Source: a virus (lineage: Duplodnaviria > Heunggongvirae > Uroviricota > Caudoviricetes). Taken from it: 40,668 nt of DNA. Shown here one piece after another: positions 10,655-16,506 of the stretch (position 1 is its first letter; each line of letters starts with the position of its first letter). The DNA is taken from IMG/VR virus record IMGVR_UViG_2534682060_000017, positions 1 to 40,668 of that record, one strand, 5' to 3'. The notes under the pieces are model-generated. The model was not told the origin of the DNA. It worked only from the letters and a program-made list of their open reading frames with translations, and searched no databases. The translations under genes were made by a program, and so were the position numbers.

Positions 10655-13159
10655 ATGGAGAAAACATTTATTTCGGAAATATTATCAGCTTATCATCATT
10701 TACAATTAGAAAATGCAAATGAAGCAGCCACAAGACTAAAAGTGATAGATCGGGTATTAAAGGAAGTCTTGATGTGGACTGATAGTGATATAAAACCAGA
10801 AGAGCATGTGACTGAAGATGGTTTGACAACTTATGCTGATTATATACTAAAAACAGCTAATATTGCTCTTGTTGTTGAAGCTAAAAAGGCAGGGCCAAGC
10901 TTTAGTACAATTCCAGGAAAAAGAAAAATAAAGCTAAGTAATAGTTTTTTACAAAGTGATCTTGGTGAAGCGATAATACAAGCTAGAGATTACGCCAGGA
11001 AATTTGGTATAGATTATGCTGTCGCTACGAATGGAAATGTATGGGCATGTTTTGCAGCTCAGAGGCATGACAATGTCAAATTTAATGATTCAATAGCGCT
11101 TGTGTTCTGGTCGTTAGAAGATTGCTTAAATGATAATTATCAAGAATTCTATGATTTACTTAGTCGTGAAAATGTTATATCAGGAAGTCTAGAAACAGCA
11201 CTTTTAGGTCGCGTCGAAAATCAAATAGAATTTAGAAAATTAAGAAATTTTTATTCGCAACAAAACAGAACACAGACAAATAATCCAATATATCATTTGA
11301 TTGCTGATGAATTAAGGTTGGCTTTTTCTGATTCTATACTTTACTTGGATGAAGACTCCTTTGATAAATGTTATGTTTCAACACCAGAAACTATGAGATT
11401 CGATAGTAAAATTAGAATGAATATAGGTAGGCGTTCAAGTGTGCTGAATGGTGAAGTACTAAAAGGGCTTAATGATAAAGATACAAAAAGAATAGTTGAT
11501 AAGTTTCAGGTTAAAGGGAAGAAAAAAATAAAAGTCAGGAATGACAAACCTCTCGCGATCTTGTTACTTGGGACTGTAGGTGCAGGTAAAACAACATTTC
11601 TTCATTACATGAGAAAGGTTAGAATAAAAGAGTTTTTTTCAAATCAATGTGATATCTTGACGCCGCATTGGGTTCATATAGACTTTCTAGATAATCCATC
11701 AGAAAGTTCAATAGTCGATTTTATTTATAAATCAATTCTGGAATATATCAATAAGCATCCTGTTTTGAGTAATAAGGATTTTGTATTTGATGCATTTCGA
11801 GAAGATATTGAGGCGATAAAATCAGGACCTCTTTTTTTATTGAGTGAGGATCAAAAAAATACCAGAATCTCGGATTTTTTATATGAACAATATAAAAAGA
11901 TAAAACCTTATGTTGATAAAATAATAAGTCGCGTTACAAAAGAGACATCTTTTTTTCTTGTTATTGATAACGTTGATCAGATCGAGTTTGATGATATCCA
12001 GTCCCGGATATTTACCGAGTCATTTTCAATTTCCAGAGCGCTTTCATTAAATTTAGTACTTTCATTGAGGCAGTCTACATTTATCAAACATAAAAACTCA
12101 CCTGCTATAGATGCTTTCGATTTTGAAGTTATACAAATAGATCCACCGAGAATAAGTAGTGTGATTGCAAAACGCTTTGCACTAGTAAAGTATATGACAA
12201 GTAATAAAAGTGGAAATTTTATTGCAGAAAATGGCGCTAAAGTTGTATTGGATGATATATCACAATTAGTCGATATTATTAGTGGGTCTGTGCTGGGAAG
12301 TGAGATTGGAACACGTATTGAAGTTCTTGCTACGGATGATGTTCGATTAGCATTACGTATGACTCGTGAGTTCTTAGAAAGAGGGTATACGAGTCCAGGT
12401 AAAGCAGTACAAATTTTCAGAGAACAAGGAAGATATCTTCTTCCACGTCATGAGGCATTTAGAGCTATATTACTGGGTACTGAGTTGACTTATAGCGAGT
12501 CAACGTCGACTATTGCGAACCCGTTTGATTCGAATTTAGCTGTGACACAAATGCAATTATTGAGGCTGTACATTCTTAATGTTATCGTTTCGTATGCAAG
12601 CGATCCCGGATTCAGACAAATCGATGGTTCGGTAATAACTGAAAAGTTAAGGTTAATTGGTATAGGTGACTCTTTCACGCATCGAGTTCTCGTTGATTTA
12701 TGCAATAAAAGGTTTTTGTTCACCGTAAATCACGGAGATCCAACAGCTTCATCAAGTTTCATTCCTTCTCGGCTGGGGGGGTATATTGCAAAAGAACTTA
12801 TTAGTAATTTCACGTTTATAGAGTGTATGCTTTATGATACATATATTGCTGATGCTAAGGTATGGAGTAGATTAAGAGATCTGAGTGCTAGAATTGAGTC
12901 TGAAAGAGATGTAATAAAAAGGATCACAATGCGTGTAAGTCGAGCAAAAACTTTCTATTATCAAATGGAAAAACTTATTTCACCGCTTTGTTCCGAAGCT
13001 ATTATAAGAGGGTTGCCTTCACAATGGTGTTCTAACCCTCTTCAGGAGCGTTTACCTGAGTTAAGAAAAGAACTAAGAAGAGTTCTTAATTCTGCAAAAA
13101 AAACATATCAACCGAAACAGGATGATTCGTCTAAGTATTTCCTTGATGAAACGGTTTAA
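10655..13159 (+). CDS. Candidate anti-phage defence protein: N-terminal HsdR-N/Mrr-like PD-(D/E)xK nuclease domain fused to P-loop NTPase (Walker A GTVGAGKTT, Walker B FFLVIDNVD) and C-terminal helical domain
   Basis: 834-aa ORF, markedly AT-rich versus flanking phage genes; N-terminus ATRLKVIDRVL..LMW ... ADYIL ... VVEAKK fits the HsdR-N/Mrr D...ExK pattern; Walker A at aa 306-314, hhhhDN Walker B at about aa 433-439; flanked by AT-rich non-coding DNA. Confidence 0.85.
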   Translation: MEKTFISEILSAYHHLQLENANEAATRLKVIDRVLKEVLMWTDSDIKPEEHVTEDGLTTYADYILKTANIALVVEAKKAGPSFSTIPGKRKIKLSNSFLQSDLGEAIIQARDYARKFGIDYAVATNGNVWACFAAQRHDNVKFNDSIALVFWSLEDCLNDNYQEFYDLLSRENVISGSLETALLGRVENQIEFRKLRNFYSQQNRTQTNNPIYHLIADELRLAFSDSILYLDEDSFDKCYVSTPETMRFDSKIRMNIGRRSSVLNGEVLKGLNDKDTKRIVDKFQVKGKKKIKVRNDKPLAILLLGTVGAGKTTFLHYMRKVRIKEFFSNQCDILTPHWVHIDFLDNPSESSIVDFIYKSILEYINKHPVLSNKDFVFDAFREDIEAIKSGPLFLLSEDQKNTRISDFLYEQYKKIKPYVDKIISRVTKETSFFLVIDNVDQIEFDDIQSRIFTESFSISRALSLNLVLSLRQSTFIKHKNSPAIDAFDFEVIQIDPPRISSVIAKRFALVKYMTSNKSGNFIAENGAKVVLDDISQLVDIISGSVLGSEIGTRIEVLATDDVRLALRMTREFLERGYTSPGKAVQIFREQGRYLLPRHEAFRAILLGTELTYSESTSTIANPFDSNLAVTQMQLLRLYILNVIVSYASDPGFRQIDGSVITEKLRLIGIGDSFTHRVLVDLCNKRFLFTVNHGDPTASSSFIPSRLGGYIAKELISNFTFIECMLYDTYIADAKVWSRLRDLSARIESERDVIKRITMRVSRAKTFYYQMEKLISPLCSEAIIRGLPSQWCSNPLQERLPELRKELRRVLNSAKKTYQPKQDDSSKYFLDETV

Positions 13160-13192: not shown

Positions 13193-13879
13193 TACTAAAA
13201 TAAATTTGGAAGTGCTGTTACAATAGATAGAGGCTCATTGTCGAGTCTCTGTTTTAATTAGTTGGTTATTTTATGTTTATTTATTTCGATATCAGATAAA
13301 AAATCAATAAAGACAGCTTTGTTGCTAGTATTTAATTCTGTAGTAATATACGGATAGTTGTTTTCTGATATACCACATATCTTTAATTGTTGGTTTTTGT
13401 CTTAGTTGATTTAAATTCAATCAACCACTCCAGCAACCTAAATATTCCTCCAGTTCCAAACAATGAATATATGATCAGGAGCATAGCACTGCTCTTCATT
13501 AAAAATTTACACTTAGTTTTGAGAAAACTGCTTACGTTATCTTAACTCTGAATTTGTACATCTTAAGAAGTGCTAGTTATATTTAGTTGTTGTGTTCCAT
13601 GTTTTACAGAAAAATCAGAGAAACTGTACTCAATAGTTGCATTTCATCACTGATGAGACCGCCTTGTATTTATCAGGACTGGTGTACGTCCGATACAGAA
13701 AGTTGTCGTGCTGGTCCTCAAATGTGCGCTGGCTATTGCGGGTAATGGCAATTTATTGTCTTGCTATTGTCCTTATGGATCGCCTTTCTGATTGATTTTA
13801 TATTGGCGAGGTAACGGGAGTTAAGTACAATGGCTGCGGGTGCTTGAGGCTATCTGTCTCAGGCATGAACACCAAAGGC

Positions 13880-13960
13880 AGATAGAGAAAAGCCCCAGTT
13901 AACATTACGCGTCCTGCAAGACGCTTAACATTAATCTGAGGCTCAATCTATGAACGGCAA
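13880..13960 (-). ncRNA. Predicted Sok-like antisense RNA region (approximate)
   Basis: Inference from hok/sok architecture: antisense RNA normally overlaps the hok leader/upstream ORF start; possible minus-strand promoter TTGCCT-17-TAACCT near 13955-13985; boundaries uncertain. Confidence 0.25.
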
Positions 13961-14006
13961 ATCTAGGTTAGCCTCTTACGTGCCGAAAGGCAAGGAGAAG
14001 CAGGCT

Positions 14007-14162
14007 ATGAAGCAGCAAAAGGCGATGTTAATCGCCCTGATCGTCATCTGTTTAACCGTCATTGTGACGGCACTGGTAACGAGGAAAGACCTCTGCGAGG
14101 TACGAATCCGAACCGGCCAGACGGAGGTCGCTGTCTTCACAGCTTACGAACCTGAGGAGTAA
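14007..14162 (+). CDS. hok: Hok/Gef family type I toxin
   Basis: Product MKQQKAMLIALIVICLTVIVTALVTRKDLCEVRIRTGQTEVAVFTAYEPEE closely resembles Hok/Gef; in-frame upstream ATG at 13950 gives a mok-like extension; mRNA leader resembles the R1 hok leader. Confidence 0.8.
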   Translation: MKQQKAMLIALIVICLTVIVTALVTRKDLCEVRIRTGQTEVAVFTAYEPEE

Positions 14163-14230
14163 GAGACCTGGCGGGGGAGAAATCCCTCGCCACCTCTGAT
14201 GTGTCAGGCATCCTCAACGCACCCGCACTT

Positions 14231-14251
14231 AACCCGCTTCGGCGGGTTTTT
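14231..14251 (+). terminator. Rho-independent terminator (AACCCGC-TTCG-GCGGGTT + T-run)
   Basis: GC stem, tetraloop, 5 T; also serves as hok mRNA 3' end. Confidence 0.6.
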
Positions 14252-14377
14252 CGTCGCATTATGAGGTTGTAATTTTAGCTACCATTAGACTATCCTAAGG
14301 ATCTCAAACAGATCTATTTTGCATCAAATTTGGTGCATGGCTTTGCCAATAATCGGAAAACAAAAGGACTCATTAGT

Positions 14378-14557
14378 ATGAGCTGCCCACTCAAAAAACA
14401 CACGCGGTTGAGTATTCCGCCTCGCGATAAAAGCGTTGTGGCAGTCCCTCGCCCAGCGATTGATGAAAACTGCGCACATCGTGAACAAGTGAAAAATGCT
14501 TTTGATTTCGGTTTTTCTCGTTATGAGAAAGCCATGGAAGAACTTTCAAAAGTGTAA
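14378..14557 (+). CDS. Putative antitoxin-like small protein upstream of Doc-family toxin
   Basis: 59-aa ORF from ATG 14378 with AAGGA RBS; stop 18 nt before the Doc-like start; identity by position only. Confidence 0.4.
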   Translation: MSCPLKKHTRLSIPPRDKSVVAVPRPAIDENCAHREQVKNAFDFGFSRYEKAMEELSKV

Positions 14558-14575
14558 TGATGGGTATTGTGCTCT

Positions 14576-15061
14576 ATGGCTGAGATTGTTGAAGGAGTGC
14601 ATTACCTTACGGTTGATGATCTTGTTGAAATCAATCGTTCCCTAATTGAATTACAGACGCCAGATGAGCCCGTTGGTGTTCTGAGTCCAGATAACTTAAG
14701 TTCTTCTCAGGCCCGTCCCAGCATGGTTCGATGGTATGAACAGACTAATGACATGTTTGTACTGGCATCGGTATTGATTGAAAGTCTGATTCAGAATCAT
14801 CCGTTTGCTAATGCGAACAAACGAACAGCTATGATGGCTGGTTACGTCTTCTTGTTGTTGAATGGCTATGAGTTAACAGCACCAGGCGATGAAATCGTGG
14901 AAATGGCAGAGGGACTGGCCTGCAAAACCTATACTCGAGAAGATCTCGAGAACTGGTTGTGTTATTGGTCTCGCGCGTATGACAGCCGGGAATTATGTAA
15001 AACAGGCGCAACTATTGTTTTGTATGAAACTATCAAGCTTAGAATAGAACAGCAAAACTAA
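14576..15061 (+). CDS. doc: Fic/Doc family toxin (death-on-curing-like)
   Basis: Contains the Fic/Doc signature HPFANANKR (HxFx(D/N)(A/G)NKR) followed by MMAGYVFLLLNGYEL. Confidence 0.75.
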   Translation: MAEIVEGVHYLTVDDLVEINRSLIELQTPDEPVGVLSPDNLSSSQARPSMVRWYEQTNDMFVLASVLIESLIQNHPFANANKRTAMMAGYVFLLLNGYELTAPGDEIVEMAEGLACKTYTREDLENWLCYWSRAYDSRELCKTGATIVLYETIKLRIEQQN

Positions 15062-15077
15062 AGGCGCTTCCAATGAA

Positions 15078-15106
15078 AACCCGCTTCGGCGGGTTTTGTT
15101 TTTTCC
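15078..15106 (+). terminator. Rho-independent terminator, second copy of AACCCGCTTCGGCGGGTTTT
   Basis: Identical 20-nt hairpin to that at 14231-14251, followed by GTTTTTT. Confidence 0.6.
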
Positions 15107-15176: not shown

Positions 15177-15455
15177 ATGGCGCACAAGACCAAATTACAC
15201 AATTCTGATAATTCAGCCGCTTTTGCCAGCAGGCACGGGCGGCGTTCTCATGTATTCAAATCTGACTGGTACCAGCATCCCCCATGCACTGAAGAACAGG
15301 CCGAATGGCTGATTCAGTGTTACGGCAGGCGCGGATACGAGGTTAAGAAAGCCCTCAGCCTCGATTATCGTCACTGGATAATCTCTGTCAGGCTCCCTTA
15401 TTCCGAACGTCCACCGCGTCCATCCCGCACATACCAGCAACGTATCTGGAGGTAA
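15177..15455 (+). CDS. Hypothetical nin-region protein
   Basis: ORF from ATG 15177; basic product; weak RBS. Confidence 0.4.
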   Translation: MAHKTKLHNSDNSAAFASRHGRRSHVFKSDWYQHPPCTEEQAEWLIQCYGRRGYEVKKALSLDYRHWIISVRLPYSERPPRPSRTYQQRIWR

Positions 15456-15456
15456 C

Positions 15457-16506
15457 GTGCGGGTATTACTTCGACCTGTTCTGGTACCGGAACTCGGGCT
15501 GGTGGTCCTTAATCCGGGCCGTGAATCCATGCCGGTATTTTACAATACCCGGGTGTTGGTGGAGCCGGAACCGAAAAACATGCGGGCGCTGCCATCAGGA
15601 GAGGTTCCCGCTGTTCGCCAGCCGCTGGCGCAAGACAAATCGTTACTGCCATTTTTCAGCGATGAGCGGGTGATCCGTGCTGTAGGTGGTGCAGGCGCAC
15701 TGTCTGACTGGCTATTACGTCACGTGAAATCCTGCCAGTGGCCACACGGCGATTATCATCACAGCGAAACCGTCATACATCGTTACGGTACTGGCGCGAT
15801 GGTGTTGTGCTGGCACTGCGACAACCAGCTGCGGGAGCAGACATCTGATTCACTGGAGCAACTTGCTCAGCAGAATCTGGCAGCCTGGATGATTGACGTC
15901 ATACGTCACGCAATGAATGGCACACAAGAGCGGGAATTATCGCTGGCTGAATTATCCTGGTGGGCGGTCTGCAATCAGGTGGCGGACGCGCTACCGGAGG
16001 CAGTATTACGTCGCTCTCTGGGATTACGTGCGGAAAAAATCCACTCGGTGTATCGCGAAAGTGACATCGTACCGGGAGAGCAGAGCGCCACCAGCATACT
16101 GAAGCAGCGCACAAAAAATCTTGCGCCGTTGCCTCATGTCCACCAGCAACAAATCCCGCCACAGGAAAAGACGGTGGTCAGCATTGCCGTTGATCCGGAG
16201 TCTCCTGAATCTTTCATGAGGCGACCTAAACGTCGCCGTTGGGTAAATGAGAAATATACGCGCTGGGTGAAGACACAGCCGTGTGCGTGTTGTGGTCAAC
16301 CAGCCGACGACCCCCATCACCTGATTGGTCACGGTCAGGGTGGAATGGGAACAAAGGCCCACGATATTTTTACGTTACCGTTGTGTCGTAAACATCATAA
16401 CGAGCTTCATGCAGATCCGTTGGCGTTCGAAGAAAAGCATGGTTCTCAGGTTGATTTAATTTTTCGTTTTCTTGATCACGCCTTTGCAACCGGCGTGCTT
16501 GGATAA
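15457..16506 (+). CDS. DUF968-family prophage protein with C-terminal HNH/zinc-finger-like motif
   Basis: 349-aa ORF with GTG start after GGAGG; C-terminus CACCGQPADDPHHLIGHG...CRKHHNELH resembles HNH-type motif; common in nin regions of lambdoid prophages. Confidence 0.7.
   Translation: MRVLLRPVLVPELGLVVLNPGRESMPVFYNTRVLVEPEPKNMRALPSGEVPAVRQPLAQDKSLLPFFSDERVIRAVGGAGALSDWLLRHVKSCQWPHGDYHHSETVIHRYGTGAMVLCWHCDNQLREQTSDSLEQLAQQNLAAWMIDVIRHAMNGTQERELSLAELSWWAVCNQVADALPEAVLRRSLGLRAEKIHSVYRESDIVPGEQSATSILKQRTKNLAPLPHVHQQQIPPQEKTVVSIAVDPESPESFMRRPKRRRWVNEKYTRWVKTQPCACCGQPADDPHHLIGHGQGGMGTKAHDIFTLPLCRKHHNELHADPLAFEEKHGSQVDLIFRFLDHAFATGVLG

Follow-up and report, generated by a model that had tools for sequence, protein, structure and literature searches.

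The locus considered here raises the question of why a Fic/Doc toxin gene and its small partner are bracketed by two identical terminator-like hairpins, and whether this identity is the mark of an insertion or duplication. The window (the whole 40,668 nt stretch of DNA analysed) is a lambdoid (lambda-like) Escherichia coli prophage, and the gene pair lies in its early-right (nin-like) region, a site of small accessory modules that precedes ydfU, rusA and Q. In our reading, which draws on the prophage context, the order of the genes and the position of the indel and to which we assign a probability of roughly three in four, a hok/sok locus and an 847 bp moron carrying doc are stacked at this site, each ending in a copy of a stock terminator. 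The features concerned, all on the + strand, are as follows.

13838..14012, + strand, 5' part of a hok/sok type I toxin–antitoxin locus (Rfam RF01794 'sok', 110 bits versus a gathering score of 59, E = 2.5e-24)
13950..14162, + strand, mok reading frame, 70 aa (from the ORF listing)
14007-14162, + strand, hokD, 51 aa, inside the mok frame (PF01848 Hok/Gef, E = 3e-23)
14212..14224, + strand, hok mRNA 3' fold-back element CCTCAACGCACCC, which pairs with the mRNA 5' end at 13839-13849
14231..14250, + strand, hairpin 1 (AACCCGC-UUCG-GCGGGUU followed by U's), predicted intrinsic terminator of the hok mRNA
14251..14377, + strand, 5' region of the Doc cassette (read from the sequence)
14378..14557, + strand, 59 aa ORF, putative antitoxin, PHROG 2208 of unknown function (PHROG match E = 7e-41)
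14576..15061, + strand, Doc-family (Fic/Doc) toxin, 161 aa (TIGR01550, PF02661, PHROG 577)
15078..15097, + strand, hairpin 2, predicted intrinsic terminator of the Doc operon and mosaic joint with the downstream backbone
15177-15455, + strand, 92 aa ORF, PHROG 1212, backbone (context)
15457-16506, + strand, DUF968 ydfU-like gene, backbone (context), followed by RusA and then Q

Two exact copies of the 20-mer AACCCGCTTCGGCGGGTTTT were found, both on the + strand; they occupy 14231-14250 and 15078-15097, and their starts are 847 nt apart. Thus, the first-pass annotation was right in describing identical 20 nt hairpins on either side of the Doc pair, and its second coordinate (15079-15098) was one base off. 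The repeat is exactly 20 nt long (the preceding bases are T versus A, the following bases T versus G), and no third copy was found in the 40.7 kb window even when 3 mismatches were allowed. The 20-mer was not recovered in any of 100 dinucleotide shuffles of the window, a test that underestimates chance recurrence because this 20-mer is a widely reused terminator. Both copies fold into a stem of 7-9 bp with a UUCG loop (-13.9 and -14.3 kcal/mol), and with their GC-rich stem-loop, U-tract and location at the 3' end of a unit, both are predicted Rho-independent (intrinsic) terminators. The U-tract rule of our terminator scan selected copy 2 only, copy 1, despite five T's after its 5 bp core stem, falling outside the rule.

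Hairpin 1 is predicted to terminate the toxin mRNA of the type I hok/sok system. In the minimum-free-energy fold of 13839-14254 the two ends were paired and hairpin 1 was left as a terminal stem-loop (z = -7.3), and in 4470 of 5426 E. coli genomes the homology coming from the hok side reached position 14251 and stopped there. In strain EC42405, hokD is annotated by RefSeq at the corresponding place. We rejected the idea that every hok locus possesses the hairpin, as it is absent from those of phage 933W and plasmid pC21-4, where the sequence is common up to the fold-back element and then diverges. Since this homology stops before the hairpin, the latter is characteristic of the hokD-type prophage locus and not of hok in general.

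Hairpin 2, which begins 16 nt past the doc stop codon, is predicted from its position and distribution to be the Doc operon's own terminator, travelling with doc. All E. coli contexts examined have it after doc, including a locus where the left hairpin has decayed (L006) and three with other downstream partners (L008, L009 and L119). This portability extends to contexts without hok, namely another E. coli prophage (L010), Salmonella phage SW-37 and two Xenorhabdus species, and in Proteus and Providencia doc is followed by a stem with compensated changes (CCCAC...GTGGG). In none of the 13 loci examined from other genera was hok found upstream of doc. Coming from the downstream side, homology begins exactly at 15078 in 2006 genomes.

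The same hairpin was found well outside this locus. The exact 20-mer is present after rpsI, after rpoC and downstream of rnpB in E. coli, hairpin-like matches were detected in all 5426 E. coli genomes at a median of 5 places each, and at least 120 viral contigs with GC contents of 30 to 67% carry the 20-mer, ~80 of them with unrelated flanks. Judged by its sequence, it is a generic stock terminator reused in E. coli and many phages. As it recurs at rpsI, rpoC, rnpB and in ~80 unrelated viral contigs, the identity of the two hairpins is a poor indicator of duplication, and the earlier proposal to take that identity as a sign of insertion or duplication was not borne out: the two hairpins are parts of separate transcription units, the first being the predicted end of the hok mRNA and hairpin 2 accompanying doc also where hok is missing.

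That the Doc module is a cassette was, on the other hand, confirmed by the comparison with related prophages lacking it. In these, including L001 and many IMG/VR loci, hok is followed by one hairpin and then by GTTTTTTCC and the 92 aa ORF, so that the sites with and without the module differ by exactly 847 bp. Such presence/absence polymorphism identifies the 847 bp unit as a genuine optional cassette. A comparison with a second carrier (L007) revealed 3 mismatches across 14175-15106 and ~10% divergence from 15107 onwards, identity thus falling from ~99.7% inside the unit to ~90% just past hairpin 2; the left breakpoint could be placed within 14174-14260. In thousands of genomes homology ends or starts at the hairpin edges, and the junctions with doc were seen in 30 and 15 genomes as against 4470 and 2006 having the flanks. 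Left hairpin copies are decaying in two loci (L002 and L006).

Besides doc, no fewer than three cassettes at the hok site have this hairpin on both sides, namely a lipoprotein-like gene (665 bp), an XRE + Peptidase_M78 pair (1348 bp), and a 216 aa ORF with an HTH-Peptidase_M78 protein (1835 bp). In the lipoprotein cassette, the left copy reads AACCCGCTTCGGCG-TTTTTTCC and may extend into what is the tail of the empty site elsewhere. For the variant boundary of this cassette, both copies examined were at the hok site, the contexts of the other 253 genomes being left out of the comparison. In one variant-boundary lipoprotein copy, hok was displaced by an IS3-family element.

The ubiquity of the 20-mer, in contexts from 30 to 67% GC, would also be expected if hok and doc had independently obtained the same optimal terminator by coincidence or convergence and their adjacency had no mechanistic meaning. 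Doc genes with saturated synonymous sites (pS ~0.8) still bear an identical hairpin, which fits selection for, or convergence on, the structure. However, a median of 5 copies per genome represents a small minority of terminators, so the chance that the next unit carries the same hairpin is low. Moreover, the identity steps and homology ends fall at the hairpin edges, and three further unrelated cassettes at the hok site are bracketed in the same way. Four unrelated cassettes with an identical 20-mer exceed what independent use of a common terminator predicts, a point that also weighs against the stacked-module reading, and hence some hairpin-linked process must operate. We therefore regard pure coincidence as decidedly unlikely.

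A rival reading is target-site duplication, whereby a mobile mechanism targeting hairpins (a structure-specific recombinase or nuclease, or one resembling a transposon or integron) inserted doc into the hok terminator and duplicated the 20 bp target, leaving the right-hand hairpin as a scar. The difference of exactly one hairpin copy plus cassette between the occupied and the empty site, the hairpins flanking four unrelated cassettes at the hok site, and the lipoprotein left copy, which hints that the duplicated stretch exceeds the hairpin, would all agree with such an event. Nevertheless, we consider it very improbable, because the same hairpin follows doc where there is neither hok nor a left copy (L010), as well as in SW-37 and Xenorhabdus, and its compensated variants do so in Proteus and Providencia; the presence of the hairpin or its variants after doc in non-hok contexts indicates that hairpin 2 predates the insertion at hok. 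Target duplications made by transposases are usually 2-14 bp, a range which 20 bp far exceeds. No transposase, integrase or terminal inverted repeats were found in the 847 bp unit, and an identification as a transposable element or integron cassette was rejected on these grounds, the flanking direct repeat being the terminator that doc carries elsewhere too. A plasmid origin was likewise rejected, since searches for close copies of the cassette on plasmids and sequenced phages yielded only a mis-filed Proteus chromosome and Salmonella phage SW-37 (~70% identity).

In the reverse polarity, the long array is ancestral, the 20 bp repeats recombined to delete the cassette precisely, leaving the empty site, and doc was lost many times. 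Direct repeats of this length around 847 bp are typical targets of single-strand annealing or RecA-independent slippage, the empty site has just the single copy that such a deletion would leave, and instability or redundancy of tandem copies would explain the decaying left copies in L002 and L006. We nevertheless consider this reading very unlikely: doc junctions are rare, the GC content of the cassette is unlike that of its neighbours, and its ~99.7% identity between backbones differing by 6-10% indicates recent spread rather than ancient retention.

The stacked-module reading is retained, and under it the second module resembles a phage moron in the sense of Hendrix, Juhala and Cumby (PMC3594210). 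The unit is present or absent among related phages with clean boundaries, ends in a predicted terminator, and has a GC content of 42-45% compared with 53-56% downstream. Between hairpin 1 and the 59 aa ORF the scan detected no sigma-70 promoter, which weighs against the model, but a candidate below the scan threshold (8 of 12 matches) was recognized there, with TTGTAA at 14267-14272, an 18 nt spacer and TATCCT at 14291-14296, an arrangement kept in a diverged O121 variant as TTGTGA, 18 nt and TATGCT; from these sequences we infer the promoter of the Doc cassette. The palindrome TGCATCAAATTTGGTGCA at 14320-14337 is a possible operator, and a Shine-Dalgarno sequence, AAGGA, lies 8 nt before the ATG of the 59 aa ORF. 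Taken as a whole, the 847 bp unit, consisting of the 5' region, two genes and a hairpin, is an optional cassette, probably of the moron type.

Assignment of the larger gene to the Doc family, as made in the first-pass annotation, was upheld by strong matches to TIGR01550 (DOC_P1; 128.5 bits, cut-off 38.65), PF02661 (Fic; 46.6 bits, cut-off 24, E = 6.5e-12) and the Doc-like toxins of PHROG 577 (E = 1.8e-51). The start at 14576 is that of RefSeq, which names the product a death-on-curing family toxin, and an in-frame TTG first occurs at 14567. Among solved structures, the nearest is PDB 9vzc (E = 5e-13), followed by P1 Doc (3k33, E = 5.5e-5). The active-site motif HPFANANKR, likewise noted earlier, is encoded at 14798-14824, is kept in 13 orthologues and aligns with the motif of both P1 Doc and 9vzc, NANKRTA being included in the alignment with the PDB match. 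It is of the Doc type, HxFx(D/N)(A/G)NKR, as opposed to HxFx(D/E)GNGRxxR of Fic. Doc proteins of P1 and Salmonella phosphorylate EF-Tu (Thr382) and thereby cause translation arrest and growth inhibition (PMC9207808, PMC11869752). PADLOC gave only weak matches of Doc to candidate (PDC) defence-system models and no match of the partner, and the pair is therefore not claimed as a recognised defence system.

The partner, described earlier as not obviously Phd-like, turned out not to be detectably so. HMM searches of the small ORF against antitoxin families, which had been suggested along with the original observation, gave no match in Pfam or NCBIfam; BLASTP against P1 Phd returned no alignment, and the PDB sequence search found only a chance ribosomal match (E = 0.86), so that identification as a Phd/YefM antitoxin was rejected. 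The protein has a conserved IPxRDK motif and a C-terminal helix, QVKNAFDFGFSRYEKAMEELSKV. In an AlphaFold2 model of the monomer, residues 1-33 are coil and residues 34-57 form a helix with pLDDT > 90, so that a disordered N-terminus and a single confident C-terminal helix are predicted, and no DNA-binding fold was detected in this model. In the helix, F42, F46, Y49 and L56 share register and distance from the C-terminus with the Phd hot spots F56, F60, L63 and L70 (PMC9207808), a correspondence with p = 0.03 in end-anchored shuffles, but not significant (p = 0.45) when any placement was allowed.

Nevertheless, the layout is that of a type II toxin–antitoxin operon, with a small upstream co-oriented gene, close spacing (a gap of 18 nt separates the stop at 14557 from the doc ATG at 14576) and a conserved pair. 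Of 14 other loci, spread over 10 further genera of Enterobacterales and Orbaceae, 13 have the partner next to doc with the pair intact; it is also intact in the E. coli variants and in Proteus and frameshifted in Salmonella phage SW-37. Profile searches recovered 38 relatives in 1.84 billion proteins (the locus scan and the representative search being run with a 12-sequence alignment), all of them small ORFs except for a 2917 aa protein matching over a short repeated stretch only. In both genes pN is far below pS (0.21-0.27 versus 0.68-0.91 for the 59 aa ORF), indicating purifying selection. As neither a DNA-binding fold nor significant similarity to Phd was found, it is this synteny that points to an antitoxin role, and we propose the 59 aa ORF as a putative Doc antitoxin of an uncharacterised family. 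A literature search found no description of the Doc/PHROG 2208 pair, or of cassette exchange bounded by terminators.

These data can be combined into a model in which small, self-contained accessory modules are stacked at this site, each ended by a strong, compact intrinsic terminator. The first module would be hok/sok, with its mRNA ending at hairpin 1, and the second the 847 bp moron with its 5' control region, the antitoxin-like 59 aa gene, the Doc-family kinase toxin and hairpin 2. The two hairpins would be identical because both are copies of the stock C(UUCG)G-tetraloop terminator, and a module expressed in the lysogen would have to stop transcription before Q. Modules would be gained, lost and swapped with breakpoints at or beside the hairpin, the shared 20 nt possibly offering short homology for crossover or direct-repeat slippage. 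By analogy with its family, Doc may phosphorylate EF-Tu and arrest translation, a labile 59 aa protein may neutralise it through the C-terminal helix, and the outcome would presumably be prophage addiction and/or an abortive-infection-type defence.

It is conceivable, although we hold it unlikely, that the hairpin is the working joint of a lambdoid cassette-exchange system and that the 59 aa protein is at the same time a minimal class of Doc antitoxin. The 20 nt identity could then let promoter-genes-hairpin modules with toxin–antitoxin or defence functions stack, swap and excise precisely upstream of Q, helped perhaps by hairpin-induced replication stalling, template switching or annealing of the Red/RecT type, and the antitoxin class could consist of a single helix with the IPxRDK motif and no DNA-binding domain. 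Such an exchange system, if real, would act like an integron array that needs no integrase. Our verdict on the locus itself is that it is a Doc module of the ordinary kind, annotated before, whose antitoxin family is uncharacterised, which does not overturn the current understanding of Doc toxins or morons. Its significance is rather that PHROG 2208 is the conserved partner of an Enterobacterales Doc subfamily and a candidate minimal, non-Phd Doc antitoxin, and that the hokD-ydfU interval of lambdoid prophages is a variable slot, which is filled in turn by Doc, XRE/ImmA-like pairs, the lipoprotein or rem-like genes, always bounded by one terminator, and which could be mined for more prophage-borne toxin–antitoxin and defence systems. 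A caution for reading sequence alone is that two identical 20 nt hairpins resemble an insertion signature and yet, in this case, are a generic terminator.

Compared with known systems, the pair resembles phd-doc of phage P1 (3K33, 3DD7, 3KH2) in its residence in a temperate phage and in having a short partner gene followed by doc with the HxFx(D/N)(A/G)NKR motif; P1 Doc aligns over residues 49-115 with Doc of this locus, including NANKRTA. Unlike P1 Phd (73 aa), the partner has 59 aa, lacks a Phd/YefM domain or significant similarity and is not predicted to have a folded N-terminal DNA-binding domain, and unlike P1 Doc (126 aa), the toxin has 161 aa with a C-terminal extension of ~35 aa and low identity. 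The upstream module is like hok/sok of plasmid R1 and hokD/relF of the Qin prophage in its mok overlap, sok match and pairing of the 5' and 3' mRNA ends, and the K-12 type hokD-rem-ydfU arrangement occupies the same site; in contrast to this hokD locus, homology of the 933W and plasmid hok loci ends before the hairpin and these have other 3' ends. The hairpins share the identical 20-mer with the rpsI, rpoC and rnpB terminators of E. coli, but these stand in unrelated contexts with no flanking homology.

The variable slot is comparable to the hotspots of P2-like phages and P4 satellites (PMC9122126, PMC13586616), where unrelated small defence or toxin–antitoxin-like systems replace each other rapidly at a fixed backbone position, although phage family and locus differ and the boundaries here are a short terminator hairpin, a type of boundary not mentioned in the text of PMC13586616. 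Finally, the Doc block is like phage morons such as HK97 gene 15 (PMC3594210) in its absence from close relatives, deviating GC content, own predicted terminator, putative promoter and seat between backbone genes, and differs from them in being one of several alternative stacked cassettes, all bounded by the same terminator sequence.

The window is a lambdoid prophage. In one of its variable slots, two copies of a generic terminator enclose a Doc toxin-antitoxin cassette of the moron type. Over a 1.8-kb query region the window is 99.9% identical to the prophage adjoining yccA in bovine E. coli EC42405. The local order is DUF977 gene, AT-rich 834-aa ORF, hok/sok, hairpin 1, 59-aa ORF, Doc, hairpin 2, 92-aa ORF, DUF968 (ydfU-like) gene, RusA and Q, with the following features:

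10655-13159 (+), 834-aa ORF
5' of hairpin 1, hok/sok (Rfam RF01794, 110 bits; Pfam Hok/Gef)
14231-14250 (+), hairpin 1
14378-14557, 59-aa ORF, between the hairpin copies
14576-15061, Doc, 161-aa ORF, between the hairpin copies
15078-15097 (+), hairpin 2
15177-15455 (+), 92-aa ORF, PHROG 1212, function unknown
15457-16506 (+), ydfU gene, DUF968/HNH-like, GTG start

The 834-aa ORF, located between the DUF977 gene and hok/sok, lies in a strongly AT-rich island (GC 30-37% versus ~50% around it). Its matches were all weak (P-loop NTPase, NACHT/STAND and HSDR_N-type; PADLOC mREase_II), and it has the look of a further gene of accessory or defence type; its EC42405 counterpart is annotated as two ORFs with a one-base offset, probably reflecting a frameshift there. 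The stop-codon of the 92-aa ORF (TAA, 15453-15455) lies two bases ahead of the ydfU start, which suggests translational coupling. On its right the slot is anchored by a conserved stretch, TGGTTTACAAT...GCCAGCCTGAACAACTGG, just 5' of the 92-aa ORF.

Searching the window for AACCCGCTTCGGCGGGTTTT gave exactly two occurrences, 847 nt apart, and no third copy with up to three mismatches, nor was any found in 100 shuffles. As the neighbouring bases differ on each side, the repeat is exactly 20 nt long. The first-pass annotation had described two identical hairpins around the gene pair; both were found there, the second one base away from its reported position. Upon folding, both copies gave a UUCG loop closed by a stem of 7-9 bp (−13.9 and −14.3 kcal/mol), and only the second passed a simple terminator scan.

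Comparison with relatives without the module confirmed the cassette. The empty site, present in strain N31 and many IMG/VR prophage contigs, consists of hok, one hairpin, then GTTTTTTCC and the 92-aa ORF, and differs from the window by exactly 847 bp, made up of the 5' region, both genes and a single hairpin. Of 5426 complete E. coli genomes, 125 have the cassette interior, chromosomal in every case; the left junction is of the window type in 30, and 15 have the right junction. A hok 3' end with its hairpin occurs in 4470 E. coli genomes, where homology ends at 14251, and the hairpin plus downstream backbone in 2006, where homology begins exactly at 15078. A second carrier (L007) shows just three mismatches to the window across 14175-15106, with ~6% divergence upstream of 14175 and ~10% from 15107 on, and this step places a mosaic breakpoint at or adjoining hairpin 2. 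The GC content is 42-45% in the cassette versus 53-56% in the downstream genes.

Hairpin identity, in contrast to the presence of an optional cassette, did not bear out the earlier proposal of an insertion or duplication: the Doc pair is indeed part of an 847-bp unit missing from some relatives, but identical hairpins do not demonstrate duplication because Doc carries the hairpin elsewhere, the 20-mer is a stock terminator and other hok loci compared are devoid of it. In SMN013SH2 there is neither hok nor a left hairpin, and the order is still Doc, hairpin, 92-aa ORF; in O121 strains the left hairpin has decayed and both the 5' region and the downstream partner are different; and in three further loci (L008, L009 and L119) Doc plus hairpin is joined to yet other right-hand sequences. 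In loci from other genera, none with hok upstream of Doc, the exact 20-mer follows Doc in two Xenorhabdus species, a 14-nt core in Citrobacter, a compensated stem CCCAC...GTGGG in Proteus and Providencia, and a TCAG loop in Morganella. Salmonella phage SW-37 has a Doc pair of ~72% DNA identity, with TAACCCGCTTCGGCGGGTTTTTT after it; in this locus (L011, 2466-3100) the antitoxin-like ORF and Doc both carry frameshifts and the terminator hairpin is intact, an example of the module decaying in a phage genome.

The E. coli core genome also has the exact 20-mer, which comes after rpsI and rpoC and lies downstream of rnpB. Hairpin-like matches occur in all 5426 E. coli genomes (median five places per genome), and the 20-mer in at least 120 IMG/VR contigs with a GC content of 30-67%, ~80 of the matches listed having entirely unrelated flanks. 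It was not present in the other hok loci compared (933W and one plasmid), whose sequence diverges directly after the fold-back element. The fold of 13839-14254 is the canonical hok mRNA architecture (z = −7.3), in which the 5' end (13839-13849) is predicted to pair with the 3' fold-back element (14212-14224). As this leaves hairpin 1 as the terminal stem-loop, it is the predicted hok terminator and no structure made by the Doc module. In some loci with a cassette behind hok, the left hairpin has decayed, as in AACCCGCTTCGGCGTTTTTT of the lipoprotein cassette (L002:1931-1952) and AACCTACTTCGGCGGTTTTTTTT of the O121 strains (L006:2858-2880). Both have lost the ability to fold (−4.5 and −1.4 kcal/mol), and hence hok transcripts in these loci probably continue through the cassette as far as the right-hand hairpin.

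In a set of 43 hok-type loci, copies of this hairpin also flank at least three further cassettes, unrelated to the Doc unit:

665 bp, lipoprotein-like gene, in 255 genomes
1348 bp, XRE-like 119-aa and Peptidase_M78 (ImmA/IrrE) 158-aa pair
1835 bp, 216-aa ORF and 367-aa HTH_3-Peptidase_M78 protein

The Peptidase_M78 cassettes, seen downstream of hok in L089 (IMGVR_UViG_2619619126_000010) and L022/L033/L122, may be toxin-antitoxin or defence-like modules. The hairpin has hok, Doc, lipoprotein or ImmA cassettes on its left and the 92-aa ORF, Doc, rem, rem-like or other sequences on its right, in many combinations, and some hairpin-linked process still operates at the slot. A dedicated hairpin-targeting element is unlikely to have moved the cassette, since it has neither a recombinase nor an inverted repeat, and hairpin 2 is older than this site. 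We read the hairpin as a boundary common to the modules, one that would insulate those active in the lysogen from Q and whose 20 nt of identity would serve short-homology crossover or slippage between direct repeats.

The 161-aa protein is confidently assigned by sequence to the Doc family. It scores 128.5 bits against TIGR01550 (cut-off 38.65), matches PF02661 and PHROG 577, and aligns through the motif with PDB 9vzc (E = 5e-13) and P1 Doc (E = 5.5e-5); in RefSeq it is already annotated as a death-on-curing family toxin. The HPFANANKR motif reported earlier is encoded at 14798-14824. By analogy with its family, we infer that the protein would phosphorylate EF-Tu.

The 59-aa ORF matches PHROG 2208 (no known function; E = 7e-41), and profile searches matched no Pfam, NCBIfam or PADLOC family, nor was there a PDB match. 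Its family is narrow: 15 clusters were found among 5.8 billion proteins and, at 50% identity, 38 among 1.84 billion, almost all of these 38-121 aa long. Conserved in it are an IPxRDK motif and a C-terminal QVxNAFxxxFxRYEKAxEELSKV. In 13 of 14 loci, drawn from Kluyvera, Serratia, Citrobacter, Hafnia, Rosenbergiella, Morganella, Yersinia, Providencia, Xenorhabdus and one Orbaceae genome, the ORF is followed directly by an intact Doc of 154-164 aa, whose motif is HPFANANKR except in Yersinia pestis (HAFANANKR). For both genes pN was 0.21-0.27 versus a saturated pS of 0.68-0.93. AlphaFold2 (12 sequences, mean pLDDT 78.6) predicted coil for residues 1-33 and a single helix for 34-57 (pLDDT >90). 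From synteny and predicted structure only, we infer a minimal antitoxin that would neutralise Doc through its C-terminal helix.

Upstream of this ORF, the best promoter candidate (TTGTAA, 18-nt spacer, TATCCT; 14267-14296) has 8/12 matches, below the scan threshold, and a similar arrangement is retained in the diverged O121 variant. A near-perfect palindrome, TGCATCAAATTTGGTGCA, lies at 14320-14337, 41-58 nt upstream of the ORF, with a smaller GATCT...AGATC repeat (14300-14314) just 5' of it; in the Kluyvera and Citrobacter orthologues the palindrome is another one, GGATGT...ACATCC, located around −61. All of these are possible operators, even though no DNA-binding fold is predicted for the 59-aa protein.

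The Doc cassette shows the defining features of a phage moron (PMC3594210), except that its promoter is a candidate only. P1 Doc (126 aa) is without the ~35-aa C-terminal extension of the window protein (14950-15061, residues ~126-161, YTREDLENWLCYWSRAYDSRELC...), which is conserved in this Doc subfamily and lies beyond the TIGR01550 model. The partner, noted earlier as not obviously Phd-like, is not detectably so, BLASTP giving no alignment with Phd; its F42/F46/Y49/L56 register is suggestive of the Phd hot spots F56/F60/L63/L70 (PMC9207808), but the shuffle p is 0.03 when end-anchored and 0.45 for any placement. The locus belongs to known kinds, Doc toxin-antitoxin modules and morons, and its only modestly new element is an uncharacterised putative antitoxin family.
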